A stretch of DNA of 64,000 nucleotides from IMG/VR virus record IMGVR_UViG_3300044644_001125, positions 83,623 to 147,622 of that record. The stretch is one strand, 5' to 3'. This DNA is from a virus. The position numbers were made by a program, and so were the translations under genes. Shown here piece by piece: positions 1 to 61,223 of the stretch; within the stretch, counting starts at the first letter, position 1, and each line of letters starts with the position of its first letter. The notes under the pieces are model-generated. The model had not been told where the DNA came from. It did not search any database and worked only from the letters and a program-made list of their open reading frames with translations.

Positions 1-164
1 CCATCGGTTCTTCTACACATGGGTTGCCTCTATGTTGGATAGATAGTTGTGCCGTAGACTTCTACGGGTTCGAGTAGAATAGTATCATACTCGACTGTCA
101 CTGTCAATAAGGCGACCAGTACTATTATTGCGATTGATTGTAGTATAATTATAGTTCGCATTGC

Positions 165-374
165 TTATCTCTTGAACAGGTAATAACCGACAGCTAACAT
201 GACTAGGTATCCCGCGCCACCACTGCCAATGATTCCAGCAGTGCCAAAGATAAGCAATCCAACCATAACAAACCAGAAAGCAACCTTAATGAATAAGGTT
301 AGCACTGTTGCGAATATAGATAGCATTATCAATGCAAAAATGATAGTGGCGGCTAGTTCGGGTGCGTTTTCCAT
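165..374 (-). CDS. small membrane protein (hydrophobic, 2 predicted TM)
   Basis: 69-aa ORF. Upstream class-B leader TTACCCGCTGTG...TATACGCACATACGAGAGCAACCA-ATG at 375-420. Confidence 0.5.
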   Translation of the reverse strand: MENAPELAATIIFALIMLSIFATVLTLFIKVAFWFVMVGLLIFGTAGIIGSGGAGYLVMLAVGYYLFKR

Positions 375-466
375 TGGTTGCTCTCGTATGTGCGTATAGG
401 TGTGTTATGTCACAGCGGGTAAAGAGGCTAAAAGATGATTGAGTTATCTTTTAGCCTTGTTGATAT

Positions 467-2247: not shown

Positions 2248-2562
2248 TTATAGTTCTAGTATGAGTTCGTTATTATCGTACTTAGACTTCCAAACCAGTT
2301 TTGCGGTGTACATATTAACGTCTAGTTCTGGTTCAAGCCATGTTAGTTCACTGTTTGACATATCGAATACATCGTCAACTTCTTCCGATGCAAGGAAAGT
2401 TCCAGTGGGAATGATCGACCAATAAGTAACTTGGTTGATGTCATTACTTGATATAATCTCACGACCTTTCTCGATTTTTTCATTAAGAAAGTCTAAGTTG
2501 CCATAGTAAAACAACGGTGTGTCTGAGTATTCTTCGGTGGTTGAAAGTTCGTATAGTTTCAT
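2248..2562 (-). CDS. hypothetical protein
   Basis: 104-aa ORF. Variant leader AGAGGCACTACAATG and CTAAAAGATAAC-TTGACA upstream. Confidence 0.55.
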   Translation of the reverse strand: MKLYELSTTEEYSDTPLFYYGNLDFLNEKIEKGREIISSNDINQVTYWSIIPTGTFLASEEVDDVFDMSNSELTWLEPELDVNMYTAKLVWKSKYDNNELILEL

Positions 2563-8316: not shown

Positions 8317-8517
8317 TTAGTTTGCGGTTAACAAATCTAAAAATTCTTGGTATGGAATCATTACTTCAAATCCCATGTTGTTATCATAAACTACCCATGT
8401 TGAATTTTTAGATGACAGGCTTATGAACTTAATGAGTGCCGTGTTTAGTATTACTAATGTTTCATGCGTTGCAGTTGAACCGCGTAGTTTTTCTGTTTTA
8501 GTTGCTTTAATGAACAT
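8317..8517 (-). CDS. hypothetical protein
   Basis: 66-aa ORF with cassette. Confidence 0.5.
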   Translation of the reverse strand: MFIKATKTEKLRGSTATHETLVILNTALIKFISLSSKNSTWVVYDNNMGFEVMIPYQEFLDLLTAN

Positions 8518-8587
8518 GGTCTTTACTCCGTAGTGCTTTGTTAAGGTGCGAGTAGTATATTACTACTCGCTTTAGTTGTCAACTGTT

Positions 8588-9088
8588 TTATATAATCATT
8601 GTTTTTGGTATTCTGTAAACAATACCACTTGCAACACCTAATAGCGGTTTAACGCTTACCACTTTCACTACTGCGACATATGAATTCCTCAACTGGATAA
8701 TGTCACCAATCATCAAGTTAGCGGCACGTTTGCGTGTTTTACTAGCATTTTCGTGAAACTTAACTACATTATCGCGCCATTCTTGGCAAGTAACTGTTGC
8801 CTCTTTTAAAAACTTTAGTGGGCAGTTATATTGATAAGGGTGCATACTTTCACACATATCTTTGTAACCATAGCCTTTATCGTTTTTAAAGTATTCAAGT
8901 CTGAATAGCAGAATAACCTTTTGACCTAACACATTGTTAGGATTATAATCAACGTCTTTTTGTGATACTGTGTACAAACCCCATAGGTTATTGCCAACCA
9001 ACGACCATTGAGTTATTGCATCATTGTCTAATTTAATTTGTCTAACTAATGCTTGTTTGCCAGTGTTGCTATAAGATAACCAACCCAT
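8588..9088 (-). CDS. hypothetical protein
   Basis: 166-aa ORF with class-A cassette at 9089-9160. Confidence 0.6.
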   Translation of the reverse strand: MGWLSYSNTGKQALVRQIKLDNDAITQWSLVGNNLWGLYTVSQKDVDYNPNNVLGQKVILLFRLEYFKNDKGYGYKDMCESMHPYQYNCPLKFLKEATVTCQEWRDNVVKFHENASKTRKRAANLMIGDIIQLRNSYVAVVKVVSVKPLLGVASGIVYRIPKTMII

Positions 9089-9285
9089 TGTCTTTACTCC
9101 GTAGTGCTTTGTTAAGGTGGGTACAGTATAGTTGTTCTGTACCCAGTTGTCAACTCTTTTTTTTCAACTATCAGTAAGTAAGTCTACCATTATTAAGATT
9201 TAACGTATTAACGAAAAATGTACTGGCTCAAGCCTTGTATTGGGTGCTTGAGGACACCCGCAGACCCACTTACTGATAGCTCTTA

Positions 9286-9308
9286 GGCTCGTGCCTATCG
9301 GCACTCGC
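9286..9308. repeat. GC-hairpin element (GGCTCG-tgcc-tatc-ggca-CTCGC)
   Basis: Member of covarying hairpin family in AT-rich intergenic region. Confidence 0.6.
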
Positions 9309-9357
9309 TAAGTTGGGTACATTATCTTTTAGAATGTACCCATTGTCAAGTATTATT

Positions 9358-9669
9358 TTAAACTACCTTACCTACGAAAACGTAATTATGTCTACTCATA
9401 TCAGCTAGATTACCAATCGAGTTAATCCAAAAAGGATCTGTATTTTGTGAATCAAGTATAACCTTATTGGCAACTTCTTCTAGGTGGTGTACCTTGTTTA
9501 CTTGAGTTTTACCTAGTAAGATACTATTGTCTAAATTATCTTTTAGTGCTTTAGCCACTTGCGCTAAGTCACTTTCGTGTCTGGTAAAACTACCAGCAAT
9601 GGATATTGGGTTTATGTTCATATTAGCACCTATCACTTTGATGTGGCAAACAATGCCGTAAATGCCCAC
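9358..9669 (-). CDS. hypothetical protein (true start possibly 9621)
   Basis: ORF without cassette. Internal Met at MNINPISIAG. Confidence 0.45.
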   Translation of the reverse strand: MGIYGIVCHIKVIGANMNINPISIAGSFTRHESDLAQVAKALKDNLDNSILLGKTQVNKVHHLEEVANKVILDSQNTDPFWINSIGNLADMSRHNYVFVGKVV

Positions 9670-13951: not shown

Positions 13952-14245
13952 TTAATCGATGGTTCTAACTGCTCTGACGTATCCGTCACCGTAACTCTTA
14001 CCGTAGTAACTCTGAATCCCGATTGACATATGATTACTCCATGCGTTGACATCATTATACTCAGTAGATGACCAGTAGTAATCTTCCTCAAACTCATTTT
14101 CCGATTCATAAATCTGCGTTAGTTCGTCTGTGGTTGGTAAACGCCATCCTGTTTTCTCGTTGATATTAAGCGAAAAGCAGTATTGGCTGGCATCATACCA
14201 GTTGGCTTGAATCTCTGTTTCTTTTGGTGCGATTTCAATGTTCAT
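13952..14245 (-). CDS. DUF1566/Lcl C-terminal domain-like small protein
   Basis: MNIEIAPKETEIQANW..YCFSLNINEKTGWRLPTTDEL..YYWSSTEY..AW..YVRAVRTID. Confidence 0.65.
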   Translation of the reverse strand: MNIEIAPKETEIQANWYDASQYCFSLNINEKTGWRLPTTDELTQIYESENEFEEDYYWSSTEYNDVNAWSNHMSIGIQSYYGKSYGDGYVRAVRTID

Positions 14246-24269: not shown

Positions 24270-24569
24270 TCAACTTTCTCTAGGGGAGAAAGTCATCTTT
24301 TTTACTAATACCAACATCCTCTTTATGTTAGGTCTAGTAACAGATAAGGCAATCTGCACTGCATCGTCCTCTATCCACAAGTTAACATACGGATTATCGT
24401 AGTACATATCATTAACATCCGCTATAGTCAAAGGTCTCCAGTGTTCAGCTTGGGCGAATGCGTATAGCTTCGCTTCCGTGTATGTCAACGGTATTGGTGC
24501 TATATGGGTTGTTTCTTGAGTTTCTTGGGTCGCGAGCACCGATAGGTGCGAGCCATTGTCAGTTGACAT
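24270..24569 (-). CDS. hypothetical protein
   Basis: 99-aa ORF. Start overlaps stop of 24559-24846. Confidence 0.45.
   Translation of the reverse strand: MSTDNGSHLSVLATQETQETTHIAPIPLTYTEAKLYAFAQAEHWRPLTIADVNDMYYDNPYVNLWIEDDAVQIALSVTRPNIKRMLVLVKKMTFSPRES
24273..24302 (+). terminator. possible plus-strand terminator in intergenic region
   Basis: CTTTCTC-tagg-GAGAAAG followed after 5 nt by TTTTTT. Spacing makes it weak. Confidence 0.35.
24533..24555. repeat. GC-hairpin element (inside coding overlap region)
   Basis: gcgagcaccgataggtgcgagcc. Confidence 0.55.
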
Positions 24570-24846
24570 CTCGCACCGCCCGTATACTTGCTACCCTAGT
24601 CTTAACTATTCTACTAGTACTATTGTCACTGAAACTATGTGCTAACGCAAAGTTCTCCGCTTCATCCGAACTCCAGTAGTTAGATAGCGTAAAGTCGTTA
24701 TCTTGCTTGTATATGTCGATAAGTTCCGCTAACGTCGGCAATCTCCAGTTATCGTGCTCATTTACTCGCATACTCTTTATTATAAGGGTGGCCTCGTACC
24801 AATCTCCAAACATTTCAGCCTCCCTAGGTGATACTTCTATACTCAT
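24559..24846 (-). CDS. divergent DUF1566-like small protein
   Basis: MSIEVSPREAE..NWRLPTLAEL..YWSS..IRAVRDVN. Confidence 0.5.
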   Translation of the reverse strand: MSIEVSPREAEMFGDWYEATLIIKSMRVNEHDNWRLPTLAELIDIYKQDNDFTLSNYWSSDEAENFALAHSFSDNSTSRIVKTRVASIRAVRDVN

Positions 24847-25246: not shown

Positions 25247-25534
25247 TTAGAGGTCTCTGACTGCTCTTACATAGCCGTCATTGTTCTTACTGTATTGATA
25301 CTGGCAGCCATTACCGAAGTTCAGACCTGCTACTCGGAAGTCATCCCATACATCAGATGACCAGTAGTAGGCAGGAGCGAAATCGTTTTTTGATCTTCCT
25401 ATTATAATGAGTTCTTCCTCGGTAGGTAAACGCCATCCAGTTTTGTTGTTTGTATTGAGTGCGAAGCAGTAGAGTTTTGCATCTTCCCACGTGAGTTTTG
25501 CTACAGTTTCTTTAGGTGCTATTTCGAATTTCAT
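25247..25534 (-). CDS. DUF1566/Lcl C-terminal domain-like small protein
   Basis: MKFEIAPKET..LYCFALNTNNKTGWRLPTEEEL..YYWSS..YVRAVRDL. First of a tandem triplet; 4-nt overlap with the next gene. Confidence 0.65.
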   Translation of the reverse strand: MKFEIAPKETVAKLTWEDAKLYCFALNTNNKTGWRLPTEEELIIIGRSKNDFAPAYYWSSDVWDDFRVAGLNFGNGCQYQYSKNNDGYVRAVRDL

Positions 25535-25848
25535 GTTAAGTCTCTTACTGCACGCACGTAGCTGATGTAATTCTTGCCGTAGTTACTGAGCTGAACACCA
25601 TTCGATAAATTCTGACACCAGGCGTAGTTAGCATTGTACTCAGAAGACGACCAGTAGAAGGAATCAACAAAGTCCCAGTAGTAGGTACAGCCAAAGTCAT
25701 TTTTGTATTCATAGATATGATTTAATTCATCTTTAGTGGGTAATCGCCATCCAGTCTTACCATCGATATTAAGAGAAAAGCAGTAGAGCTTGGCATCAAA
25801 CCAATTGAGAAATGCCTCTGTTTCTTTTGGACTTATTTCGAATTTCAT
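25531..25848 (-). CDS. DUF1566-like small protein
   Basis: Same motif set. ATGA-type overlaps on both sides. Confidence 0.65.
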   Translation of the reverse strand: MKFEISPKETEAFLNWFDAKLYCFSLNIDGKTGWRLPTKDELNHIYEYKNDFGCTYYWDFVDSFYWSSSEYNANYAWCQNLSNGVQLSNYGKNYISYVRAVRDLT

Positions 25849-26138
25849 TGTAAATCCCTGATTGCTCTTACGTAGTTGTAGTCATAATCTTTAGCCCCAT
25901 CAAATTGACCACCAGTACCAAACGACTGAAACCATGCTTTTGAGCCATCGACCTCGGTAGAGGACCAATATCCCCATTTTTCAAAATCATGTTTTGTATC
26001 GAATATTTTATCTAGTTCTTCAAATGTTGGTAATCTCCAACCGGTTTTACCATTTATACGAAGAGCAAAGCAATACAACTTGGCATCATCCCAATTGGCT
26101 TGGATCTCTGTTTCCTTGGGTGCTATTTCGATGTTCAT
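25845..26138 (-). CDS. DUF1566-like small protein
   Basis: MNIEIAPKETEIQANW..GWRLPTFEEL..YVRAIRDLQ. Confidence 0.65.
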   Translation of the reverse strand: MNIEIAPKETEIQANWDDAKLYCFALRINGKTGWRLPTFEELDKIFDTKHDFEKWGYWSSTEVDGSKAWFQSFGTGGQFDGAKDYDYNYVRAIRDLQ

Positions 26139-27734: not shown

Positions 27735-27986
27735 TTAGGATGTCAAGTGTTTTTCATTATCTTTTAGATCTCTTACTGGTATGCAGGTTGCTGTATTATG
27801 ATCAAAGTAATTGCAATTTTGAAAAAGTACATTGTACCGGTCTGGTAGTTCAAAGACGTATTCTTTATCTGTCGGTAATCGCCATCCAATTTTACCATCA
27901 ATATTAAGTGAGAAGCAATAGACCAATGCTTCCGAGTAGGTTATTTCTTCTTTGTGATATTCTTCTGGTGCTATTTCGATGGCCAT
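27735..27986 (-). CDS. DUF1566-like small protein (short variant)
   Basis: MAIEIAPEEY..LVYCFSLNIDGKIGWRLPTDKEY..CIPVRDL. Confidence 0.55.
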   Translation of the reverse strand: MAIEIAPEEYHKEEITYSEALVYCFSLNIDGKIGWRLPTDKEYVFELPDRYNVLFQNCNYFDHNTATCIPVRDLKDNEKHLTS

Positions 27987-28082: not shown

Positions 28083-28802
28083 TTAGCAGTTCCACTTTCT
28101 CAGTGCCAGTGCTTTTCTGGTTGGCTTGCCATGTTCATCCTTCATTGGTCCTTTCATACCACTCATTCTAGCACAGAAACTTTTACGTCGTTTGGCTGCT
28201 TTGCTACCTGGTTTGAGTTTACTTGGTTTAGTAGTGACTGCTGTTTGAAGTTTACTTCCAGGGTGTTCTCTGCGATAGCTAGCTACACCTTTCTTGTTCA
28301 AACCACCTCGTTTGTTCTTGCCTTCTTTACGTTGCCAAGCAGCTGTTTCAAAGAGTTCACGATCACTGACTGATTCAAAGTCTTCCCAAATGACGTCACT
28401 ATCAACGTTATGTTGTATGGCTAAACTTTCTACCATGTCTTCGATCATGTCGAACATCTCGTCAACAGTTGGGTTGACTCCTTGGTCTTCTTGACTTTGT
28501 AGGTAATCCCAAACAGAAACCAGCATGCTTTCTGCTTTTGCGATTTTCTCTTGAGCCCATTCTGGTAGGTTTTCATTGTCGTCAATTGTATCGAGAAGCC
28601 CATCAACTGCTCTTCGAAGCGTATGAAGATTGCTGTGAGCCATCCCAGCTTCGTCATCATATTCTGCATTGAAGTTTTCGTTTGGTACACAGTTATTGAC
28701 TCGGATACCACCTTTCATCTTAGTACCTTCTTTGTGTTTGCCCTTCCAACAACTTGGGTCTAGGCGTTGTTTTGATTCTGTAATTAGTTCACTGATGCGC
28801 AT
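28083..28802 (-). CDS. hypothetical protein, MRISELI N-terminus, Lys/Arg-rich Cys-containing C-terminus
   Basis: 239 aa. C-terminal KRRKSFCARMSGMKGP...ALALRKWNC resembles 61224-61484. Confidence 0.55.
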   Translation of the reverse strand: MRISELITESKQRLDPSCWKGKHKEGTKMKGGIRVNNCVPNENFNAEYDDEAGMAHSNLHTLRRAVDGLLDTIDDNENLPEWAQEKIAKAESMLVSVWDYLQSQEDQGVNPTVDEMFDMIEDMVESLAIQHNVDSDVIWEDFESVSDRELFETAAWQRKEGKNKRGGLNKKGVASYRREHPGSKLQTAVTTKPSKLKPGSKAAKRRKSFCARMSGMKGPMKDEHGKPTRKALALRKWNC

Positions 28803-28871
28803 TTTGGTAATCCTCTTAGTTTTGTGTATTTATTTGGTGCTGGTAAGTTAAATACATGTTTAAGGTGTATT

Positions 28872-29588
28872 ATGAGAATCGAAGAAATACTAAGTGAAGT
28901 AAAACTAAAGCCACGCATATCAAATAAGTCTACAAGTGGCGTTTTGAAATCACCGAACTTACAGTTTATCGCAACTGGTACCCAAGCTATTGCGTATTAT
29001 CACAAAACGCATCCGAATACTGTTGTTAAAGTTGCTGCGGTATCTGGTGAAGGAGACCCCATTTGGCAGTTCTTGCGTATTTGCATCAATAATCAAAAGA
29101 ATCCGTATTTTCCAAAAATCTTTAACTACAAGATATTCAATTTAAAATCGATAACCGATGAAGAAGAAGCGTACTTGGAAAACAATCCAGAGTTTGAATA
29201 CTTACCTATTCATGATAATAGAAAGATGCAAATACTAATGGTAACTGAACGGCTTGATGAAATCACTGCACCTGAGTTTGAACAAGCATTGAGTAAACTA
29301 GGATTAGACAAATTGATCAACTATACTAAAAGAAAATGGCAACCTGGTTACAGCTATCCATTAACAACAGAACTAATATGGAAAATGTTAATGGATAAAG
29401 AAGTTGGTAGACGGTATTTACGGTCTGAATCAACTGACAAGCACTTTTCGGATGCCATTAGGCTATTGAGTCCATTGATAGCAACCGGTAGAATGTATGC
29501 TGATGTTCATCTTGGGAATATGATGTTGAGAAAAGATGGGCATTTGGTATTTAATGATCCACTAGCTATTACCCTTTCAGATGAATAG
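28872..29588 (+). CDS. hypothetical protein (MRIEEIL N-terminus)
   Basis: Start at second ATG, with AAGGTG SD. The six-frame ORF begins 48 nt earlier. Confidence 0.55.
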   Translation: MRIEEILSEVKLKPRISNKSTSGVLKSPNLQFIATGTQAIAYYHKTHPNTVVKVAAVSGEGDPIWQFLRICINNQKNPYFPKIFNYKIFNLKSITDEEEAYLENNPEFEYLPIHDNRKMQILMVTERLDEITAPEFEQALSKLGLDKLINYTKRKWQPGYSYPLTTELIWKMLMDKEVGRRYLRSESTDKHFSDAIRLLSPLIATGRMYADVHLGNMMLRKDGHLVFNDPLAITLSDE

Positions 29589-29612
29589 CAAACTCACATT
29601 CTCGGCAGGGAA

Positions 29613-29858
29613 CTAATCGACATCTCGCACTGGATAGCAAAAGTACTTTACGGTATCCAGTTCCGAATCCATCAATGATGGTTTGTCTTCTTGCACCCAA
29701 CCAATAGACAGCACTGGTTTGCTATTGCTATCGCGGAAGTCTTTATACGATGGTATTCTCCAACCAATCTTACCATCGATGTTTAATGAAAAGCAATATA
29801 GTATTGATTCGTTCCACGTTATTTTTTTGTGGTATTCTTCTGGTGCTATTTCGATCAT
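29613..29858 (-). CDS. DUF1566-like small protein (short variant)
   Basis: MIEIAPEEYHKKITWNESILYCFSLNIDGKIGWRIPS..YPVRDVD. Confidence 0.55.
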   Translation of the reverse strand: MIEIAPEEYHKKITWNESILYCFSLNIDGKIGWRIPSYKDFRDSNSKPVLSIGWVQEDKPSLMDSELDTVKYFCYPVRDVD

Positions 29859-29912
29859 TGGTTTTCTCTAAAAGATAATAAACAAACAGTCTACATTATC
29901 TTTTAGTTTCGG

Positions 29913-30719
29913 TCAACTTAAACTTGATTGATAATCAGTAAGATGTTGGTAGATTGATTTCAAGTATCTGCGGTATACTTTCTCGTAGCCTGGTTCTTGT
30001 CTATTCTTAAAATCAGAATAGGTAGTTGCTTGCTTTGGAATTTCTTTTAGGAATACAGTAATAGCAGTGGCTTGTTCAGCTACAGGTAACTTGTGTATCT
30101 TATTGATTAGATCCGATGCAGCTTCTTGTGCGTATGCTGCTATTTCATCAGGTTGAGATTTGTAGATTTCGTGTGCTCTTACTTTCTCTTCTTCTGATTT
30201 GAATTCATCTTGAATCAAGGCTGTAAAGAATTTGATTTTGTCTTTTTCAATATAGCCACGTTTGTATTTGTATCGTTGTCCGTGACTTACTTGCGTAGCA
30301 TGAGTAACTTCATGCAGGAATACTGAAGTCAAGTAACCAATGATAGTATCTAGTTCAGTAGAAACGTCAATCTTTTCTGTCAACTGTTTATATAGCAGTG
30401 TGATAAGTTTTGAAAGTACTTTAGGTGAAATAGTTATCGTGTTGGTGTCTTCGAGGTACTGGCCGGTTCCATTGGGTAGGGATTTAAACTGAATAGTAAC
30501 CTCACTGTTTGTTATTTGTTTTGCGTAATCTGTTAGAATAGGTTTGATCGCATTAACAAACGCAGTATTGTACTTGACCATAAACTGCATATCCATTTTC
30601 GCTGGCGGTTGCGTTGGCGTTTTGAATATCGTTGCAACAGCGGTGTGTAATGCTCGGTTAATCGTTGGTGTGTAGTTTGATAACGATATACGTTCACTTA
30701 AGATTTCTGCGATTCTCAT
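29913..30719 (-). CDS. hypothetical protein with HExxH motif (possible metallopeptidase-like), MRIAEIL N-terminus
   Basis: VFLHEVTHATQVSHG. 4-nt overlap with upstream gene. Confidence 0.55.
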   Translation of the reverse strand: MRIAEILSERISLSNYTPTINRALHTAVATIFKTPTQPPAKMDMQFMVKYNTAFVNAIKPILTDYAKQITNSEVTIQFKSLPNGTGQYLEDTNTITISPKVLSKLITLLYKQLTEKIDVSTELDTIIGYLTSVFLHEVTHATQVSHGQRYKYKRGYIEKDKIKFFTALIQDEFKSEEEKVRAHEIYKSQPDEIAAYAQEAASDLINKIHKLPVAEQATAITVFLKEIPKQATTYSDFKNRQEPGYEKVYRRYLKSIYQHLTDYQSSLS

Positions 30720-31528
30720 ACTGATGCCTTTCTTGTAAGGATGAAGCTATCACCGTAGGTTTCGATATTCCAAGTATTAGAAAAGAACTTGTTAAGGATT
30801 TTAGAATAGACTGCGAATCTACGATTTTGTCTAACGTGTACGCCTTCTGGTGAGTAACTAGTGATCACTGACATGAATCGTTCTAGTTGTTTGAAGGCTT
30901 CGTTCATCTCTGGATATTTGCTGAGTTTCATGTCAGCAGCTTTGCGTATTTGCCAGTATAGTTTATCAAACTCACTTGAACTATATTTTTCAACTGGCTG
31001 GGTAAGATATTGTTTGATTGCCTCGATTGTTTCTAATACCAGGTTGTACTTATTCTTTCTAATCTCATCTTCTTCAGTTTTTAGTAACTCGTTTGTCACT
31101 GAACTTAAACCTTGCAATGATGCGAGTAATTCTCTTTTAGGTCTTTCTACTGGTATATTGAATTTGTGTTTGGTATCACTAGGAGTTGAATGCGCAGAGA
31201 AAGTGCACCGGTCGATTTTGGCTTTGTCGAGATAGGTTTTAACGATGTAGCCAACCCCAGATAGAATATCAAAATCATTATCAATATCTTTTCCTTCAGT
31301 CGATGCGGTATCATACATTGTACCATTAACATAGAAAACAACATCGGTTGTTTTCTCATCGCCATCGGTTGTTGTTTTGAATTGAATGTCTACTTGATTA
31401 CCTTTGTTTGTGGTAAAAGTACGTTGTGCTATTTTGTTCTTAGAACCTTGCATACCGGCTTTTGATACAGTTGAACTTTTAACTGTAGTTAAAGGTTTCT
31501 TTGGTTCTAGTAGTTCGTGAATTCGCAT
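30716..31528 (-). CDS. hypothetical protein (MRIHELL N-terminus)
   Basis: 270-aa ORF. Confidence 0.55.
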   Translation of the reverse strand: MRIHELLEPKKPLTTVKSSTVSKAGMQGSKNKIAQRTFTTNKGNQVDIQFKTTTDGDEKTTDVVFYVNGTMYDTASTEGKDIDNDFDILSGVGYIVKTYLDKAKIDRCTFSAHSTPSDTKHKFNIPVERPKRELLASLQGLSSVTNELLKTEEDEIRKNKYNLVLETIEAIKQYLTQPVEKYSSSEFDKLYWQIRKAADMKLSKYPEMNEAFKQLERFMSVITSYSPEGVHVRQNRRFAVYSKILNKFFSNTWNIETYGDSFILTRKASV

Positions 31529-31589
31529 TGGATAATGTCCTCTTTTGGTATTGAAGTATTTATGGAGGACATTATCTTTTAGGTTGTGG

Positions 31590-34520: not shown

Positions 34521-34748
34521 TTAATTGTCAATGCTTCGTACTGGGATAATTGTATGCGTTTCTGTAGTCCAATTGTCATTGATGTCTTCATCATACCAAT
34601 AACCGTCTTCATTTGTCATTATAACAAGCGACGTCAGGCATTCTTCACATGTGGGTAATCTCCAACCATCACCTAAACAAAAACAATACAAGACTGCTTC
34701 TGTGATGGTACCCTCTTTCCACAATACTCTAGGTGCTATTTCAATCAT
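34521..34748 (-). CDS. DUF1566-like small protein (degenerate)
   Basis: MIEIAPRVLWKEG..LYCFCLGDGWRLPTCEEC..IIPVRSIDN. Confidence 0.55.
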   Translation of the reverse strand: MIEIAPRVLWKEGTITEAVLYCFCLGDGWRLPTCEECLTSLVIMTNEDGYWYDEDINDNWTTETHTIIPVRSIDN

Positions 34749-35203: not shown

Positions 35204-35399
35204 CTTTAATATCTCGCACTGGTCTAACAAAAAACGTACTAACTTGTGAGATTCTATCAACATACCAAGAACCTTGCAATTCATACTCAATGTATTCGGC
35301 TTCAGTTGGCAATCTCCAACCATCACCCAAGCAAAAACAATATAAGATTGCCTCGTCATACGTGATTCGTTTGTTATAGTACTTCCCAATCTCAATCAT
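35196..35399 (-). CDS. DUF1566-like small protein
   Basis: MIEIGKYYNKRITYDEAILYCFCLGDGWRLPTEAEY..VRPVRDIKDD. Confidence 0.55.
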   Translation of the reverse strand: MIEIGKYYNKRITYDEAILYCFCLGDGWRLPTEAEYIEYELQGSWYVDRISQVSTFFVRPVRDIKDD

Positions 35400-35634
35400 C
35401 GTCAACATCTCTCACTGGTACAAGTGGGCATAACCCAACACTATGAATCGAGTCTTCAGCAACCCAGGCATGTATTATGGTTGGCGATTCACCGTGGATA
35501 ACAGCCATGATGTTGTTAAGTTCACGTCTAGTCGGTAGTCGCCATCCAATATCTAATTTTAATAGATGCAATTCTGCATCGGATCGTGATATATTATGGG
35601 TTGGGCGTAATTCTATTGGCGATACTTCTATCAT
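35392..35634 (-). CDS. DUF1566-like small protein (divergent)
   Basis: MIEVSPIEL..LHLLKLDIGWRLPTRREL..LVPVRDVDDD. Confidence 0.5.
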   Translation of the reverse strand: MIEVSPIELRPTHNISRSDAELHLLKLDIGWRLPTRRELNNIMAVIHGESPTIIHAWVAEDSIHSVGLCPLVPVRDVDDD

Positions 35635-35966: not shown

Positions 35967-36191
35967 ATGAGAGCAGCAGAGTTTATGCGAACCCTGGCGG
36001 ATTTAATCGACCAGCTAGAAAACAAAACCGATGATACTAAATCATCTGAATCAGAAACACCAATGGATTCTGGTGATATAATGGTACCACCTCTACAGCA
36101 AAAGATCGAGTTGATGAAAAAGATGACAAACTCGGATGATGATAACTTTAATACAGCAGCGGCTGAAGAAGACGAACCATTCGAAGGATAA
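35967..36191 (+). CDS. hypothetical acidic protein
   Basis: AAAGGAAACCAAAC-ATG SD. Immediately precedes the tail fibre gene. Confidence 0.45.
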   Translation: MRAAEFMRTLADLIDQLENKTDDTKSSESETPMDSGDIMVPPLQQKIELMKKMTNSDDDNFNTAAAEEDEPFEG

Positions 36192-39752: not shown

Positions 39753-39998
39753 TTAAGGATTGTCAATAGTTCTTACTGCTCTGACTGACAAGTTCTGATC
39801 AACCAAGTAATCGTCATCAGATGACCAATACCAAGCCCAGTGCGAAGATTCGGAATTTTTAGAAAGTTCTTTAAGCTCGTCACTTGTTGGTAATCTCCAA
39901 CCTATCTTACCATCAACACTAAGAGAAAAGCAATACAATTTTGCAGCATCTAATGAATTAGTGAATGTTTCGGTTTCGATTGGTGACAACTCAATCAT
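39753..39998 (-). CDS. DUF1566-like small protein
   Basis: MIELSPIETE..LYCFSLSVDGKIGWRLPTSDEL..YWSS..VRAVRTIDNP. Confidence 0.6.
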   Translation of the reverse strand: MIELSPIETETFTNSLDAAKLYCFSLSVDGKIGWRLPTSDELKELSKNSESSHWAWYWSSDDDYLVDQNLSVRAVRTIDNP

Positions 39999-40282
39999 AG
40001 CGTTCTGACTGGTCTAGCCTGCGAAAGCATTGTGGGTAAGTGCTCTATTGTAGTGACTCCACCGTATTGGATATGGAAGATGCAACCATGATTGTTGTCT
40101 TTTGCATTGATCCAGCATGAGCCTGGAACTTCAATATCCATTCGTCCTAGTTCTTGCATTTCAGATATAGTAGGTAAACGCCATCCAGTTTTACCGTCGA
40201 TGTTTAATGAAAAACAATATACAATTGCTTCATCAATAGTTAAGGTCTTTTCGTATTCAGGTGGTGATAATTCAAAGTGCAT
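39995..40282 (-). CDS. DUF1566-like small protein
   Basis: MHFELSPPEY..VYCFSLNIDGKTGWRLPTISEM..ARPVRTL. Confidence 0.6.
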   Translation of the reverse strand: MHFELSPPEYEKTLTIDEAIVYCFSLNIDGKTGWRLPTISEMQELGRMDIEVPGSCWINAKDNNHGCIFHIQYGGVTTIEHLPTMLSQARPVRTL

Positions 40283-41829: not shown

Positions 41830-42180
41830 TTAGTACCCTGTCGTGTTGGAATCATTGCGTGGTTCCTGCACTTCAGGTTTTTGATGGAACTTCTTTCTAT
41901 CAGGTTTTTCCGGTTGAAACTTTTGAAATTTACCAGAAGTTGATCTTACTGGTGGCGAAATTTTAAATTTTCCATCTCTTTGATCCGCTGCATTCTTTGC
42001 ACAAGATTTAGAAAATGAAGGATGACCATTATTTGAAATGCAGTTGGATGGGTCCGTTATTTTGTGTTTTTTGGACCAGTCAAATCCACTTTTCGACCCG
42101 GAACAGTCTTTCGTGCACGGTAATCCGTTGTATGATAACCCTGAATAGGTCAACTCTGTTATAATTTCATGTATTCTCAT
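41830..42180 (-). CDS. hypothetical Lys/Cys-rich protein (MRIHEII N-terminus)
   Basis: 116-aa ORF with Cys/Lys-rich core, loosely similar to 61224-61484. Confidence 0.5.
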   Translation of the reverse strand: MRIHEIITELTYSGLSYNGLPCTKDCSGSKSGFDWSKKHKITDPSNCISNNGHPSFSKSCAKNAADQRDGKFKISPPVRSTSGKFQKFQPEKPDRKKFHQKPEVQEPRNDSNTTGY

Positions 42181-42217
42181 GTTTGTATTTATTCACTAAA
42201 AGATAATCAACCCAACT

Positions 42218-44586: not shown

Positions 44587-45015
44587 TTACAGGAGTGTGT
44601 CAGTTGGTTCTAAAAGATAATCTAAATCATCTTTTAGGTCAGGGAATTGGTTCTTTAGCCTAGCAGCCAATGACTTCTGTAGTTTGTTATTCTTAGTATT
44701 ACCAGTACCAGATTCGTTATGTGAGAACAAACCAAACAAATATAGTTTTGATGGTGAACCAGCTATTCGGTATACTATGCTAATATCCTGTGACAAATGC
44801 GCATGTTTAAGTTTCATTTTTCCAAGAGGACCATCCGAGTTGTATGGATAATCAGACGATCCAAATTTCTGGGCTGGGTTTTGTGCTTTCATTCGAATGA
44901 AGTCATTTGCCTTATTTTCCAATGTTCGATACTTAATAAGTGATTCGTCATACGCAGGACACATTTCAACCTTAAGCATCAGCTTCACCACTGCAGATTT
45001 TTCTATTATGTGCAA
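44587..45015 (-). CDS. RelE/YafQ-fold-like protein (possible toxin)
   Basis: C-terminal KHAHLSQDISIVYRI..LYLFGLFSH resembles YafQ H..xD..LIYK...F.TGTH. Confidence 0.4.
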   Translation of the reverse strand: MHIIEKSAVVKLMLKVEMCPAYDESLIKYRTLENKANDFIRMKAQNPAQKFGSSDYPYNSDGPLGKMKLKHAHLSQDISIVYRIAGSPSKLYLFGLFSHNESGTGNTKNNKLQKSLAARLKNQFPDLKDDLDYLLEPTDTLL

Positions 45016-45160
45016 TAGCTTCTTCGACTGTCATTTCAGTCCATGGTCCATTAAGTGCAGCATCCAATATCTTAGCACGGTCTTCATCACTGAACAACTG
45101 ATCATCGTCAGGTCTTGCAAATTCATTTAATCTCATCGTTTTCTCCTCTTGTATTTTCAC
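44972..45160 (-). CDS. small protein with GPWTxMTxEE repeat unit
   Basis: One copy of a ~30-aa unit present three times across 44972-45455. Confidence 0.45.
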   Translation of the reverse strand: MKIQEEKTMRLNEFARPDDDQLFSDEDRAKILDAALNGPWTEMTVEEAIAHNRKICSGEADA

Positions 45161-47266: not shown

Positions 47267-47491
47267 CTATTTAACTGGTTTGTAAAAGGCTAAGAAATAC
47301 AAGATGACTAAGATCGAATCGTTAAACAGAAAGAATTTCAAATCAGCTTCAAAAGTTTCAATTTCTTTTAGATATTCGTCAACTATTATTGCTGCAGATA
47401 GGGCAAACATTAAGGGTACTCCTACATCTGCTATTCGTTTGTGCATGGCTTTTCTCCTAGGTATACTAGTATATATCTCGCACTGGTACAA
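47267..47491 (-). CDS. small membrane protein
   Basis: 74 aa with two hydrophobic segments. Confidence 0.4.
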   Translation of the reverse strand: MYQCEIYTSIPRRKAMHKRIADVGVPLMFALSAAIIVDEYLKEIETFEADLKFFLFNDSILVILYFLAFYKPVK

Positions 47492-47759
47492 TACTATAAT
47501 GCAATTTTAATTTCTCGCCATCACCCAGTTCCAGGTATCCAGATCTTATGTCAACTATACCAGTATCACAGATGTACCAAAAGTCTAAGTATGCAAACGT
47601 CGAAACTCCATGGACTTTTCCACGTATCGAAAATAATTCCGCATAAGTAGGAAATCTCCAGCCTACTTGATCGTTTATAACAAGTGAGAAACAATACAAC
47701 TTTGCTTCATTTATGGTCAAATCTTTCCAGTATTCGATTGGTGCTATTTGTATAGTCAT
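47466..47759 (-). CDS. DUF1566-like small protein
   Basis: MTIQIAPIEY..LYCFSLVINDQVGWRFPTYAEL..IVPVRDIY. Confidence 0.55.
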   Translation of the reverse strand: MTIQIAPIEYWKDLTINEAKLYCFSLVINDQVGWRFPTYAELFSIRGKVHGVSTFAYLDFWYICDTGIVDIRSGYLELGDGEKLKLHYSIVPVRDIY

Positions 47760-49183: not shown

Positions 49184-50386
49184 TTAGTCTGTATAGTGAA
49201 CGGTTTGTCCATACGAAGCGGTAGCGGATTCATTACCGAATACGATAAACAATGTATCCACTAGTTCACCGATGGCTGGCACCTCGTCGCTCACATACAG
49301 GTCAGTAAAATTAAGGAGTTTTTTAGGGCTTAGATTATTCTCTTTTAGGTATTCTAAAATACATCTATAATCTGTGCCACCACCACCAACTGGTTCATAA
49401 GTTAACAAATCACCAGCATTGTCATGCGTAATTAAAATTGGATTGTAAATGTCAACATCATAACAGAATAAATGAATTTTATAATCAGTATACTGACTCA
49501 TGATACCAGAGATCTCACCTAAGAATATAGAGATTTCGTTTTGTCCAATAGATCCACTCATGTCTAAAGCAATTGCAATGTCAATCGTTTGTTCTGGAAT
49601 CATACCAGGTAGAATAGCTCCAGATGCCCAACCTTTACGACTAGGTCTACTGAATGAATAGTTACTACGAACAATCGATTGAATGTTCATCTGTAATAGT
49701 TCACGCCAATTCATTTTAGGTTCAGTCATATCTTGAATCAGTCTTTTAATAGCAGCAGGTACATTACCAGCGGCGGCCGCATGTGCTTGGACCATCGCTT
49801 CTTTCAAAGAATCTCTGATCTCCTGCCATTCTGCTTTTGAAAACTTAGGTCTACCGCTACCTTCTTTACCATCTTCGTCGCCGTCGCCATCACCGCTATC
49901 ATCTTGAGAGAGGTGGTCGTCTAATGAATCCATGCCTGCGAGTATGTCATCGAGTGACACTACGGTCGCGTTTTCAATAAGTAATTCGTAGATCTCCTCC
50001 CAAGATTTTCCACGATAGACTGGATCCAAGCACAGAGGAACTTGATCAATAACCGTTCCAATCTTTTCATCTACGAGCAGTATGTTTATGGCGAAATCTT
50101 GGGCTATATTTGACAACCGAGCATCTCGTGAGCCACGCCGCAAAAAATGTTCAAAACAAATGTGAAGAATCTCATGACCGAATAAGAATTCAAGTTGTTT
50201 AACTGATAGTTTTTCAACGAATTCGGTGTTGTAATAGAAGTCTTTCCCATTAGTGGCCGCCGTTTGGCACCACGAACTGCTCTCCACAAGTTTCATCCGA
50301 GATGCCAAATTACCAAAAAAGCTAGCCCGTAGCATGAGACCGATGCGAGCAACCGTGAGTTTTTCTTCGATGGGAGTTAGTAACAT
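49184..50386 (-). CDS. vWA domain protein with N-terminal HExxH (DUF2201-like) domain; partner of MoxR ATPase
   Basis: FGHEILHICFEHF. C-terminal MIDAS IDIAIALDMSGSIG. Acidic linker. Confidence 0.7.
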   Translation of the reverse strand: MLLTPIEEKLTVARIGLMLRASFFGNLASRMKLVESSSWCQTAATNGKDFYYNTEFVEKLSVKQLEFLFGHEILHICFEHFLRRGSRDARLSNIAQDFAINILLVDEKIGTVIDQVPLCLDPVYRGKSWEEIYELLIENATVVSLDDILAGMDSLDDHLSQDDSGDGDGDEDGKEGSGRPKFSKAEWQEIRDSLKEAMVQAHAAAAGNVPAAIKRLIQDMTEPKMNWRELLQMNIQSIVRSNYSFSRPSRKGWASGAILPGMIPEQTIDIAIALDMSGSIGQNEISIFLGEISGIMSQYTDYKIHLFCYDVDIYNPILITHDNAGDLLTYEPVGGGGTDYRCILEYLKENNLSPKKLLNFTDLYVSDEVPAIGELVDTLFIVFGNESATASYGQTVHYTD

Positions 50387-51237: not shown

Positions 51238-52323
51238 TTACTTATCTGACATCGCTTGGATGATCAATTTGCCATATTTTTCAGAGAACTGGTGGAATGA
51301 AGGCATTTTGGTTGCATCGAATGGTAAGTTATAAGATACCAAGCCGGTTCTTGCACCCATCACAACTAATTCAGTTGGGAAGTTAGCCATCATGTAGGTA
51401 AAGAAGTTGTTAGCCATGTCATTCCAACCGGCTGCTTTCTTGTCAGCACGATCTTTTAACTCGTAGCAAAGTGAAATAGTCAACGAGTACATAGCTGAGA
51501 TTTCTTTAACGTCTAGTTTAGTTACTTTACCATCTAAGATATCATCAGCAGTTGGCATTTTACCAGCGATTTTGCGATGAGCCATAAACTTGATACTTAG
51601 ACCATCACCGATAGCACCAGCAACTAAGGTATGTAAGGTTTCGCTATCGATAGTAGATTCATCATCTAGCAATTCAGATACGAAAGACCAAGAGCGTGGT
51701 GTAGCGAATGCTTTACTAGAGCTTGCTGGTTTAAAGTCATACAAGTCTTGTTTAGCAAAACCCAAGTAACCAATAACTTCAGGATGGATTTGGTTTTGGA
51801 TTGCCCATTCTTGCCAGTCATCGAAATCTGTGGTAGTTTCCAAATGGACGAAACGGTTTGCTAGAGGACTTGGCATACGGAATGTTACACCTCTATCGCC
51901 ATCGCGGTTACCAGCTGCCACAATATCTACACCTTCTGGTAAGACATAGTTACCTACTCTACGGTTTAAGATAAGTTGGTAAGCAGCGGCTTGAACTGCT
52001 GGTGGTGCTGAGTTTAATTCGTCTAAGAAGAGAATCGCAGTTGATTCTGGATCACTAGGTAATTCAGCAGGTTCTGCCCATAGCATGGTTTTAGCTTCTT
52101 GGTTGTAATAAGGAATACCTTTGATATCGGTAGGTTCCCAGAGTGCTAAACGGATGTCAATAACTTCACGGTGTTGTTCTTGACCGATTTGTTTGACCAG
52201 ATCCGACTTACCAATGCCTGGTGCGCCCCAGACAAAAATAGGACGGCGTTTTTTGATTGAGTGTTGAATTGCTTTTTTTGCTGCTTTAGGGCCAACTAAA
52301 CGTGTGCTGATATCTGTGCTCAT
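51238..52323 (-). CDS. MoxR-family AAA+ ATPase (CobS/CbbQ-like)
   Basis: Walker A VWGAPGIGKSDL. Walker B ILFLDELN. 361 aa. Adjacent to vWA partner. Confidence 0.75.
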   Translation of the reverse strand: MSTDISTRLVGPKAAKKAIQHSIKKRRPIFVWGAPGIGKSDLVKQIGQEQHREVIDIRLALWEPTDIKGIPYYNQEAKTMLWAEPAELPSDPESTAILFLDELNSAPPAVQAAAYQLILNRRVGNYVLPEGVDIVAAGNRDGDRGVTFRMPSPLANRFVHLETTTDFDDWQEWAIQNQIHPEVIGYLGFAKQDLYDFKPASSSKAFATPRSWSFVSELLDDESTIDSETLHTLVAGAIGDGLSIKFMAHRKIAGKMPTADDILDGKVTKLDVKEISAMYSLTISLCYELKDRADKKAAGWNDMANNFFTYMMANFPTELVVMGARTGLVSYNLPFDATKMPSFHQFSEKYGKLIIQAMSDK

Positions 52324-53023: not shown

Positions 53024-54360
53024 ATGACCAGCATCATCAAAACCAGTCAACATAGTACCAAGTTTGCCAATACAGGCAAGCAGGATATATTGTCTGAATT
53101 TTTAACCGAATATGATAGAATGATATGGTGGTTTGTTGATTACTTATGGGAAACTAAGATCGTGTGGGGATTAAATCAAGTACTAGACGTGAAGAATAAT
53201 CGTTTAGATGTACCTAATTTTATCAATACCGCAGATATAGAATACCATTCCGATTTATCAGCTAGGGCTATAAAATTAGCATCTAGCGAAGCTCTCGCGT
53301 TAGTCAAAGGGCAAACAGAAAAAAGAAGAAAGCAATTCCACGTTCTAGCTAAAAACATGAAAATGGGAACTGTCGGAGAGGTTAAACGACTTCAATCAAA
53401 AATAGATAGCAATCCTCTCACAAAACCAACTACTAATTCCAAAAACCCAAGTGCTAGACTCGATAGTATGTGTTGCAAGTACATACCAACAGAATCGTCA
53501 ATATTCGATGGATGGCTTAAACTCAAATCGATTGGTAAGGTATACGGTCATATCTTCATTCCAATTAAGTTAACCAAACATTCTAATAAGTTAGCCAAGA
53601 AAGGATATTCGATGATGACAACTTGGCGCATTTGTAATAATGTGGTTTCTTCGACTTGGCAAATTGAAAGAAAACCAAGCAGTGGAACTAAAGTTTTAGG
53701 CGCTGACCAAGGAATTAGTACGTGTCTATCACTAAGCGATAGTCAGACCACTGGGGTTTGTAAACATGGACATGATTTAAAATCAATTATAAATAAGCTA
53801 TCAAAAAAGAAAAAGGGTAGTAAGGCTTTTGCTAAGGCACAAGCCCATAGAACCAATTATATCAATTGGTCAATTAACCAATTAAACCTACAAGATGTCA
53901 AAGAACTCAGGCTTGAAAAGTTATTTCAGATGAGGAAGGGTCATAATATAGGTAAACTATTAAGTCATTGGACTTACACACAAATCAATGCACAGATAAA
54001 AAGCAGATGCGAGGAACTAGGCGTCCTAGTTACCGAGCAATCCGCTGTTTATAGAAGTCAGAGATGCAGTGATTGTGGTTGGACGCAGAAATCAAATAGG
54101 AAGGGAAAGGAGTTTATATGCAAGTCATGTGGCCATCACATCGATGCGGATATAAATGGCGCCCTTAATCACGAAGTGGACTTATATCCGCTCCCTATGG
54201 GATTTCGTCATTTGAATATGAATAGAAAAGGTTTCTTTTGGTATGAAACCCAGCTATTCGATTCAACTGGTCAGGAGATTACAGTCCCTGACGTGAAAAA
54301 TATATAACTGTCAACCTTTTTCATAAGTATTAACATTGTATAACTGTCAATCGTTTTACG
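52940..54360 (+). mobile_element. putative TnpB-only IS element (IS1341-like); ends not defined
   Basis: tnpB on opposite strand to flanking backbone genes. TATAACTGTCAA direct repeat at 54304-54352 downstream of stop. Confidence 0.35.
53024..54307 (+). CDS. tnpB: IS200/IS605-family TnpB (OrfB) RNA-guided nuclease homolog
   Basis: C-terminal zinc finger CSDCGW..CKSCGH. RuvC-III IDADINGALN. 427 aa. No adjacent tnpA. Confidence 0.8.
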   Translation: MTSIIKTSQHSTKFANTGKQDILSEFLTEYDRMIWWFVDYLWETKIVWGLNQVLDVKNNRLDVPNFINTADIEYHSDLSARAIKLASSEALALVKGQTEKRRKQFHVLAKNMKMGTVGEVKRLQSKIDSNPLTKPTTNSKNPSARLDSMCCKYIPTESSIFDGWLKLKSIGKVYGHIFIPIKLTKHSNKLAKKGYSMMTTWRICNNVVSSTWQIERKPSSGTKVLGADQGISTCLSLSDSQTTGVCKHGHDLKSIINKLSKKKKGSKAFAKAQAHRTNYINWSINQLNLQDVKELRLEKLFQMRKGHNIGKLLSHWTYTQINAQIKSRCEELGVLVTEQSAVYRSQRCSDCGWTQKSNRKGKEFICKSCGHHIDADINGALNHEVDLYPLPMGFRHLNMNRKGFFWYETQLFDSTGQEITVPDVKNI

Positions 54361-55031: not shown

Positions 55032-55877
55032 TTAATGTTTCATGATGGTAACATGAGCCATCTTTTGCCAAGTATCCGCAAATGACTTTTTAAGGTCTGC
55101 TGCTTTGAGAACTGTTCTAATGGATAATTCTCTTAGCTTGTCTGCATTACTCATAACAAAATGAACGATTTCGTCTTCGTGATGGGTTGGGAATTCATAG
55201 TCATCTAGTAGACCATCACTTACGATTTGTTTGATTCTAAGAATACGTTCATGTTGGGTATTCATCTTTAAGTCAATAAAGTGGCATCTTGATTCTAAAG
55301 CAGCCAAATGTTCTTGTAGCTTTTTGCTTTTGATAGAACCAAACTGGACATTAGTAATAAAGATAACACCTGCTTTAAACTCAAATCTTTCTGGGATGTG
55401 TTCACGTCTTAAGAGGTGACTATCGGTATTCCAGCTGACCCATCGTCTTTTAGAAGTATCTAAACAGGCTTTAACGATGTTAAGTGAAACTTCATCCATG
55501 AAGATACCATCAGCATCATCGAATACTAAAACATTACCTTCACCGCTGTATTCGTAGAGTTTACGGTATAAGCCCAATGCACTGATAGCACCTTTAATGA
55601 TTTCGTATTTTGGTTTTCTGTTGGCGATGGTATCGAACAAGTCTTGTTTAGAAAGGATATTCTCGACCCCAAAACTCTTGCCAACTCCTGGTGGGCCTGT
55701 GACAATTAAGGCCCTGATGTTGCCATCTTTTACTGCGGTGGTCATGTGGTCAAGAACTTCAAATCGTTCTCTGATTCTGGTGATGATTTGTTCGTCGGTT
55801 TCGGTTTCTGTAATTTTCATGTAATTGTCCTGTGATGTAGTAAATGTAAGTATATTTGATTTTGTAAGTAATGTCAA
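55032..55877 (-). CDS. AAA-family ATPase
   Basis: Walker A IVTGPPGVGKSF. Walker B VLVFDDADG. 281 aa. Confidence 0.65.
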   Translation of the reverse strand: MTLLTKSNILTFTTSQDNYMKITETETDEQIITRIRERFEVLDHMTTAVKDGNIRALIVTGPPGVGKSFGVENILSKQDLFDTIANRKPKYEIIKGAISALGLYRKLYEYSGEGNVLVFDDADGIFMDEVSLNIVKACLDTSKRRWVSWNTDSHLLRREHIPERFEFKAGVIFITNVQFGSIKSKKLQEHLAALESRCHFIDLKMNTQHERILRIKQIVSDGLLDDYEFPTHHEDEIVHFVMSNADKLRELSIRTVLKAADLKKSFADTWQKMAHVTIMKH

Positions 55878-61153: not shown

Positions 61154-61223
61154 GGTTAGTTCCATTATCTTTTAGGTTACTGGCTAAATACCTTTATATT
61201 AACATATTATAGGTGACAAATAC

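Follow-up and report, generated by a model that had tools for sequence, protein, structure and literature searches.

Mullaney and Black reportedly described, in 1996, a capsid targeting sequence (CTS) on the internal proteins IPI-III and Alt of bacteriophage T4. The CTS has 10 residues, is the only conserved part of these diverse internal proteins and suffices for packaging foreign proteins (PMC3012670, PMC9026906). It is removed by gp21 (PMC3012670, PMC9026906, PMC5694885), and an Asp at the cleavage position stops processing, not targeting (PMC9026906). The proteins that carry it include a host-modifying enzyme (Alt) and anti-defence proteins (IPI). Here we analyse a stretch of 64,000 nucleotides (the window) from the IMG/VR virus record IMGVR_UViG_3300044644_001125, positions 83,623 to 147,622, in which otherwise unrelated proteins begin with the nonapeptide M-[RK]-I-x-E-[IL]-[IL]-[ST]-E. 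By analogy with T4, this tag is probably a T4-type capsid (prohead-core) targeting propeptide.

Two other systems invite comparison. The inner-head and ejection proteins of phiKZ, 201phi2-1 and SPN3US are similar in that jumbo phages package many proteins and a gp21-related protease cuts after Glu; their propeptides are also thought to act in head targeting (PMC5694885). Unlike the tag, however, these propeptides have at least 100 residues and no single stereotyped motif, and their cleavage motif is (S/A/G)-x-E (PMC5694885). The phages belong to a different lineage, the nucleus-forming chimalliviruses. In the Dar system of phage P1, loading is an ordered protein-protein pathway (Hdf, DarA) and is not known to use a common short cleavable tag. 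The likeness lies in the outcome, since diverse anti-defence proteins of P1 are loaded into the capsid and injected (PMC9024508, PMC12810830).

A six-frame search of the window with the pattern M[RK][ILV]x[ED][ILV][ILV] returned six matches, each of which is the first ATG of an open reading frame (ORF) of 86–270 amino acids (aa), so that M-R-I-x-E-[ILV]-[ILV] heads six ORFs. The base-shuffled window gave a mean of 0.26 matches. We also compared the 136 crude gene calls of the window with its 375 internal Met residues: six gene calls match at the N-terminus versus none of the internal positions. Amino-acid composition predicts 0.02 N-terminal matches, position-specific composition 0.10 (Poisson P ≤ 1e-9). 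The initial annotation had listed seven ORFs with such a start (28083, 28872, 29913, 30716, 41830, 61224 and, with a variant, 59614) and had presupposed that the heptad is commoner at N-termini than expected. All seven ORFs are real and have the N-termini given there, and the presupposition holds for the gene calls of the window.

The signature extends to residue 9, which is E or D in the window. Behind it the proteins differ, as had been claimed: by BLASTP their bodies are unrelated, and the best local alignments cover the first nine residues only. The codons within the tag vary (CGC, CGA or AGA for Arg; ATC, ATT or ATA for Ile), and the tag is therefore conserved as a peptide, not as DNA. 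Orthologues exchange R/K, I/L and E/D, while position 4 is free to vary. Selection on the tag is at the peptide level. A DNA-level repeat as the source of the tag is ruled out by the differing codons.

These observations bear on the idea that new genes were repeatedly inserted behind a cassette of promoter, start and first codons, in which case the tag would reflect descent of the 5' end and have no present function. Tagged genes do occur in tandem arrays and in polymorphic islands; one such island differs between L004 and L006 (L-numbers designate other viral loci compared with the window). T4-type phages are also known to shuffle genes via regulatory cassettes (PMC2839356). However, the tag is not conserved as DNA, the sequences upstream vary from family to family, and deep divergence has left the peptide pattern in place, with conservative exchanges and an E9 that does not vary; such a relic would leave this peptide-level constraint unexplained. 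We regard this explanation as very unlikely; cassette shuffling as such is compatible with a functional tag and not an alternative to it.

Four of the tagged genes lie close together. Gene 28083..28802 (minus strand; tag MRISELITE at 28802-28776) encodes 239 aa with a mature isoelectric point (pI) of 8.6, laid out as tag, CW...C module, acidic helical region and C-terminal DUF6321 (PF19846, E 2.7e-22); full-length tagged homologues are present in L038, L121 and L037. Gene 28872..29588 (plus strand; MRIEEILSE at 28872-28898; 238 aa) has a protein-kinase-like body and matches phrog_15752 (E 1.6e-7), which PHROG annotates as a protein kinase inhibiting host transcription. Its residues K53, D211, N216 and N228-D229-P230 are unchanged across 19 homologues, and E9 of the tag is invariant in the same 19 sequences, beside the catalytic residues. 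In an AlphaFold2 model (pLDDT 75) the tag forms a helix at residues 3–9, separated from the domain by a stretch of lower confidence (block pLDDT 51–56; below 50 at residues 19–26). From the sequence, I3, I6 and L7 would fall on one face of such a helix and R2, E5 and E9 on the opposite one. The best Foldseek matches of the model in the PDB are GAK, AAK1, APH(2'') and PINK1, with low TM-scores of 0.3–0.4.

Gene 29913..30719 (minus strand; MRIAEILSE at 30719-30693; 268 aa) contains an HExxH motif (HEVTH) and encodes a putative metallopeptidase. Its Pfam matches are weak (DUF6782, DUF4344), and orthologues at about 74% identity start MKIKELLIE or MKIRELLYE. This gene begins within the end of the tagged gene upstream of it, start and stop having 4 nt in common (30716-30719), which suggests that the two are co-transcribed. 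That upstream gene, 30716..31528 (minus strand; 270 aa; mature pI 9.2), has a shortened tag, MRIHELLE at 31528-31505, on a body of no recognised family. Only seven close homologues of it were found (61–96% identity), with M1, R2, I3, E5, L6, E8 and P9 invariant.

The remaining tagged genes are more distant. Gene 41830..42180 (minus strand; MRIHEIITE at 42180-42154) encodes a small basic Cys protein of 116 aa with a 'CTKDCSG' motif, and 61224..61484 (plus strand; MRISEVIAD at 61224-61250) a basic protein of 86 aa and pI 9.4, in whose tag Asp replaces Glu at position 9. For the six strictly tagged proteins of the window, the mature pI is 8.6–9.6. The variant tag MRLYELKE (59614-59637) belongs to gene 59614..60585 (plus strand; 323 aa), a ParB-like protein with a DGHHR motif that matches phrog_2579, annotated as ParB C-terminal domain (E 5e-35); in L079, a protein with a GHHR motif that is ParB-like by eye and has no Pfam match carries the canonical tag MRISEILTE. 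Three short acidic proteins are possible variants of uncertain membership: 35967..36191 (plus strand; MRAAEFMRT; 74 aa), 44972..45136 (minus strand; MRLNEFARP; 54 aa) and 2248..2562 (minus strand; MKLYELSTT; 104 aa). Starts of the form MRAxEF(I/M) are also present in the tagged-gene array of L024. The bodies had been described correctly (HEVTH in 29913, ParB-like in 59614, small, basic and Cys-containing in 41830 and 61224). A C-terminal segment said to be common to 28083, 41830 and 61224 was not recovered: BLASTP finds no similarity, the three have only a Lys/Arg/Cys-rich composition in common, and they belong to different small-module families (DUF6321, 'CTKDCSGH' and 'C-T-S...S-K-C-K', respectively).

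IMG/VR viral contigs were then scanned with a back-translated DNA pattern that requires E at position 9. At least 119 stretches with the pattern were found on many contigs of 5–352 kb. Among the matches listed, at least 83 of 119 coincide with the start of an ORF that encodes 50 aa or more, and the tagged proteins form at least 39 unrelated clusters. For a chance resemblance of the N-termini one can say that the motif is short, and nothing else; the window statistics given above, the ORF-start matches in IMG/VR and the counts from head-module loci given below exclude it, and we give it a negligible probability.

In 163 distinct N-termini, M at position 1 is followed by R (115) or K (48), I (121; also A, 24, and L, 11), N, T, S or K, and E (143) or D (20) at positions 2–5, and by I, L or F, then L or I, T or S, E, and S, A, D or N at positions 6–10. 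With the presumed cut site, the consensus can be summarised as M[RK]I[NTS]E[IL][IL][TS]E|[SADN], and the commonest form is MRINELLTE, then S. Position 9 is biased in this table, because most of the sequences came from the pattern demanding E there; with a pattern that did not demand it, E9 was seen in 19 of 22 distinct tagged starts.

Domains confirmed by Pfam among the tagged proteins are GNAT acetyltransferase (two proteins), SLT transglycosylase and LysM (one each). By eye, from motifs alone, we read others as enzymes (HExxH proteins, a protein with a ParB-like GHHR motif, a GH19-type lysozyme, a ligase-like protein with KWDG, and an NMNAT-like HxGH nucleotidyltransferase), and also possible ADP-ribosyltransferases, Ala/Pro/Gly-rich proteins and several small Lys/Cys-rich modules. 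In L056, one protein (8420..9505) contains the tag twice: MRITEIISE heads a HELGH protein, and an internal copy reads MKINEIISE|AANPAKQAAIAINMKK. The module behind the internal copy is a separate, N-terminally tagged protein in L077 and L091. The double-tag protein is either a fusion that is processed at the internal site or the result of a lost stop codon.

The T4 record (NC_000866) allows a direct comparison. There, gp24 starts MAKINELLRE|STTT and is noted as cleaved by gp21, Alt starts MELITELFDE|D, and IPII and IPIII start MKTYQEFIAE|A; an [IL]-x-E site for the gp21 prohead protease ends the propeptides of gp24, Alt and IPII/III. The tag fits such a site, with [IL]-[ST]-E at positions 7–9 and S/A/D/N at position 10, the exceptions being genes 30716..31528 and 61224..61484. 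Like the CTS of IPI-III and Alt, it would be a propeptide formed by about the first 10 residues and the sole conserved part of unrelated, mostly basic proteins (six to seven in the window), ending in [IL]-x-E before a small residue, and at the level of the clade the phages encode a predicted gp21-family protease. The polymorphism of the tagged-gene island between relatives is a further likeness to the internal-protein loci of T4. Unlike the CTS of the internal proteins, the tag has the form MRIxEILSE rather than MKTYQEFIAE and 9 residues instead of 10. Its putative cargo is far broader than that of T4 (at least 39 unrelated families), and it occurs in jumbo phages of about 370 kb that belong to a PA5oct/RaK2-related clade. 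The closest match in sequence is the gp24 propeptide MAKINELLRE, which has [KR]-I-N-E-L-L-x-E in common with MRINELLTE; unlike the tag, it is found on a shell (vertex) protein, has an extra Ala2 and belongs to a single gene rather than a cargo family.

The loci with tagged genes also encode a T4-like gp20 portal, gp21 protease, gp23 capsid protein, sheath, gp43 DNA polymerase and gp41 helicase (local tblastn). Their head module has the T4 order of portal, 80-aa gene, ~270-aa gene, protease, scaffold and capsid, and the last three adjoin tagged genes in L008, L022, L024, L028 and L068. As judged from these gene families, a predicted S77 protease and T4-type scaffold lie next to tagged genes in the clade; they were not seen for the window's own lineage. 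The capsid protein of the clade is 65–71% identical to those of Phosso, Vibrio phage 2.275.O, PA5oct, GAP32, CBB and others, and the CBB record lists PF03420 Peptidase_S77 (protease), PF07068 Gp23 (capsid) and a late sigma factor. The FLTE stretch of T4 gp23, whose last residue is E65, is aligned with YLSE|S in the capsid protein of the clade; we take E65 to be the gp21 cleavage site.

In a further 80 head-module loci the tag is found at 24 of 856 ORF starts versus 2 of 6323 internal Met residues. A single Gly/Ala-rich gene, conserved and syntenic, accounts for 22 of these 24; it lies about 7 kb upstream of the protease and bears the tag in 22 of the 80 loci, many of which end short of its position. 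Proteins of 67 aa, encoded directly behind the capsid gene in L204 and, presumably, in L206, make up the remaining two. That of L204 has the CTKDCSG motif of window gene 41830..42180, that of L206 a related Cys motif. Tandem tagged genes stand beside the capsid gene in L024 (six) and L068 (three). The capsid, scaffold, portal and tail genes themselves have no tag, which shows that carrying one is not a trait of late genes as such.

Virion data are available for some relatives. In PA5oct, gp333 starts MKINDIITE, occupies the position of T4 gp67 and is annotated as 'structural protein; ESI-MS/MS'; it is the only tag-like start in 91 kb of that phage. The same gene starts MKLVELFE in Vibrio phage 2.275.O and MLDEIFE in CBB. 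Genes for DUF6321 proteins, the C-terminal family of gene 28083..28802, lie between gp16 and gp17 in cyanophage P-RSM4 and just upstream of the large terminase gene in S-SCSM1, where the product carries the annotation of virion protein; that of the marine T4-like virus AG-345-E15 starts MKTFEQFTE. NMNAT-like proteins have repeatedly been detected by mass spectrometry in cyanophage virions (PMC9602691). In T4-like cyanophages these enzymes start MKSFSKFFSE|A, MKKFSTFISE|A or MKNLFQFLAE|A, which resembles the CTS of the internal proteins, and in the jumbo clade (L039) the start is MRIFEILSE|A; those of phiKp_21 and MIJ3 have neither a CTS-like nor a tag-like start.

For tagged proteins in general, we infer docking, cleavage, retention in the head and ejection, in the following order. 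TAAATA(C) promoters resembling the late ones of T4 would drive late expression of the tagged genes. As a short amphipathic helix on a flexible linker, the tag would then attach its protein to the scaffolding core while the prohead assembles, and the gp21-family (Peptidase_S77) protease would cut after Glu9, at [IL]-x-E before a small residue. The mature, mostly basic proteins would be retained alongside the DNA in the head and pass with it into the next host. Enzymes among them (the kinase-like, HExxH and ParB-like proteins of the window; elsewhere GNAT, transglycosylase and NMNAT-like proteins) could act before phage gene expression.

The upstream regions are in line with the first of these steps. 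TAAATA was found within 50 nt upstream of five of the six tagged genes versus 13 of the 130 other genes of the window (p = 1e-4), and the sixth overlaps a tagged gene that has the motif. TAAATA(C) resembles the T4 late promoter TATAAATA, and this match points to putative late expression of the tagged genes, when proheads assemble. The tagged genes 28802(-) and 28872(+) are 69 bp apart, and between them a divergent pair of late-promoter-like motifs (28827..28854) consists of AATAAATAC on the minus strand (28832-28827) and TTAAATAC on the plus strand (28849-28854). On the minus strand, CATAAATAC at 31557..31562 precedes 31528 by 34 nt and would drive the two genes of the unit 31528..29913, and AATAAATAC at 42186..42191 lies 11 nt upstream of 42180, directly after an early-promoter-type TTATCTTTTAG. 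On the plus strand, CTAAATAC at 61185..61190, again preceded by TTATCTTTTAG, is 39 nt upstream of 61224.

Another explanation is a role of the tag in expression, in which it would favour translation initiation (including that of leaderless or short-leader late mRNAs) or set the half-life of the protein. Genes 41830..42180 and 61224..61484 have no obvious Shine-Dalgarno sequence and start very near a promoter-like motif, and the first codons are A-rich. However, the conservation is in amino acids while codons vary, and the most highly expressed late genes (capsid, scaffold, portal, tail) are untagged. The internal copy kept in the putative L056 gene fusion and the fit of E9 plus a small residue to a protease site, not to initiation, also speak against it, and we find this explanation quite unlikely.

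A different promoter element recurs across the window. The 9-mer ATCTTTTAG occurs at 83 sites spanning 435-61176, where about 0.5 would be expected; the sites are mostly intergenic and mostly have the form TTATCTTTTAG (for example 4827(-), 3014(-), 6677(-), 15603(-) and 52720(-), with six clustered at 50439-50579(-)). The 9-mer lies within a stereotyped promoter of the sigma-70 type, TTGACA-N17-TAGAAT, whose spacer is conserved. Upstream of the -35 box there is often an inverted copy, CTAAAAGATAA, or a hairpin with a varying yet complementary stem. This cassette looks like the early promoters of T4-type phages and their 'promoter early stem-loop' cassettes (PMC2839356), and it is also present in L014 at 95% identity over 60 nt. 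As it belongs to sigma-70-type early promoters, we rejected ATCTTTTAG as a component of the tag finding.

As to destination, the initial annotation had proposed a targeting signal for either capsid packaging with ejection or secretion, and the first of these fits better. Packaging is favoured because of the T4-like pattern with its protease site, the gp21-carrying phages, the tagged genes of the head module and the virion data from relatives. The tag shows no features of a Sec or Tat signal: it has 9 residues, a net charge of about -1 and no hydrophobic stretch. Other destinations (secretion or the membrane, a phage-made compartment, docking to a phage chaperone or the tail) draw on the diverse, enzyme-rich cargo and on the export signals that two tagged proteins bear in addition. 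Yet the tag is short and acidic to amphipathic, with neither hydrophobic core nor twin arginine, and these export signals are separate and downstream of it, which argues against secretion. No chimallivirus-type genes were noticed, and the clade is T4-related. The tag also ends in a head-protease site, heads genes of the head module and matches the propeptides of T4 gp24 and Alt, so that we judge another destination to be unlikely.

Several observations weigh against a capsid targeting propeptide. The export-like signals just mentioned lie directly behind the tag and are Tat-like in L009 and Sec-like in L115. The L009 protein (2..382(-)), read by eye as a GH19-type lysozyme, starts MRINEIITED-MSRRGFLGALGAGAMAASGAAQA; in L115 (6398..6892(+)) the tag is followed by ...GWKSKLGAAALAGAAMLGGGHTAHA. 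Capsid targeting explains neither signal. Some cargo (ligase-like, NMNAT-like) looks like ordinary cytoplasmic enzymes. The tag of gene 30716..31528 has Glu at position 8 and then Pro, and that of 61224..61484 has Asp at position 9; because these depart from the site, cleavage may not be universal. Over all fetched loci, ATAAATA precedes 23% of tagged and 13% of untagged genes (p = 5e-4), a modest association. In the cultured relatives a tag-like start is found only on the small gene after the portal and on no enzyme, within the stretches read (PA5oct, 91 kb; Vibrio phage 2.275.O, 41 kb; CBB, 33 kb).

The window's own lineage also contributes to this side. There are no head genes within the 64 kb, and no contigs of about 372 kb from this lineage were among the best 120 of more than 8000 relatives of the S77 protease. 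The presumed T4-type nature of the window phage rests on shared gene families, on the cultured matches of gene 55032..55820 and on promoter types; the matches that follow speak for its place in the clade. The best cultured matches of that gene are PA5oct-like phages, followed by about 1300 records, mostly of T4-like phages. Tagged DUF6321 homologues of the 28083 type are found at full length in loci carrying a T4-type DNA polymerase, and L014 combines the promoter cassette of the window with a gp41-like helicase. Kinase-like homologues of 28872..29588 lie on contigs of 372,173, 372,031 and 368,346 bp, and L006, from a relative of the window phage, is part of a 372-kb IMG/VR contig.

Genes around the tagged-gene islands give some indication of the host. 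In L004 (5013-6525) and L006 (5059-8344), ClpS-like, heme-oxygenase-like and DnaK-like genes were recognised by eye from their N-terminal sequences, and relatives of the window phage have a gene similar to cyanophage pcyA (local tblastn, E 3e-13). The ClpS-like, heme-oxygenase-like and pcyA-like genes, not the DnaK-like one, are located just upstream of the tagged-gene island. These cyanophage-typical genes are hints of a cyanobacterial host for a 372-kb jumbo phage. In the window, 49184..50386(-) encodes a DUF2201 metallopeptidase/VWA-like protein, with six early-promoter motifs stacked upstream, near an AAA (MoxR/dynein-type) ATPase gene at 51238..52323(-); this gene pair resembles the CobT/CobS-like pair of T4-like cyanophages. 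An ORF of 427 aa at 53024..54307(+) has a Cas12f1-like TNB domain (PF07282, E 4.8e-15) and is a TnpB-type transposon nuclease.

The window also contains twelve paralogous small genes of 75–105 aa, all on the minus strand, which start M(x)IE(I/L)(A/S)P.E and have 'LYCFSLNIDGKxGWRLPT' in common: 13952..14245, 24559..24846, 25247..25534, 25531..25848, 25845..26138, 27735..27986, 29613..29858, 34521..34748, 35392..35634, 39753..39998, 39995..40282 and 47466..47759. The Pfam match of the paralogue 25845..26138 is Lcl_C (PF07603). The conserved N-terminus of this family is unrelated to the tag, and two copies flank the tagged-gene cluster.

The mechanism of capsid targeting is itself already known from T4. 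A literature search on the motif strings and on capsid targeting in cyanophages and jumbo phages gave no description of the tag; in the literature searched, the stereotyped tag, its use in a PA5oct/RaK2-related, largely uncultured clade and the breadth of its cargo are without earlier description. The region has no megablast match among cultured phages, and tblastn found none there for the kinase-like protein or for the commonest tagged family (MRINEILTESQLEQLDEGP type). A bolder reading, on which we are close to undecided and which we offer tentatively, is that in a large, mostly uncultured clade of T4-related jumbo phages dozens of unrelated enzymes enter the capsid by means of a single stereotyped, cleavable tag of nine residues, which would make the capsid a protein-delivery device with its entire cargo legible in the genome sequence. 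The enzymes would comprise kinase-like, HExxH, ParB-like, GNAT, transglycosylase and NMNAT-like proteins and possibly ADP-ribosyltransferase-like ones, and some cargo may bear a Tat or Sec signal as a further address that would serve once it is injected.

To our knowledge, capsid targeting by such a sequence has so far been shown experimentally only in T4. If the tag acts in this way, foreign proteins could be packaged into phage heads with a second natural tag that is short. Searching for a simple pattern would then be enough to list candidate injected proteins of hundreds of uncultured jumbo phages. Because injected proteins act before any phage gene is expressed, they would be prime candidates for host takeover and anti-defence. 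The targeting principle of T4 would thus extend to a different, environmentally abundant clade with a far wider cargo.

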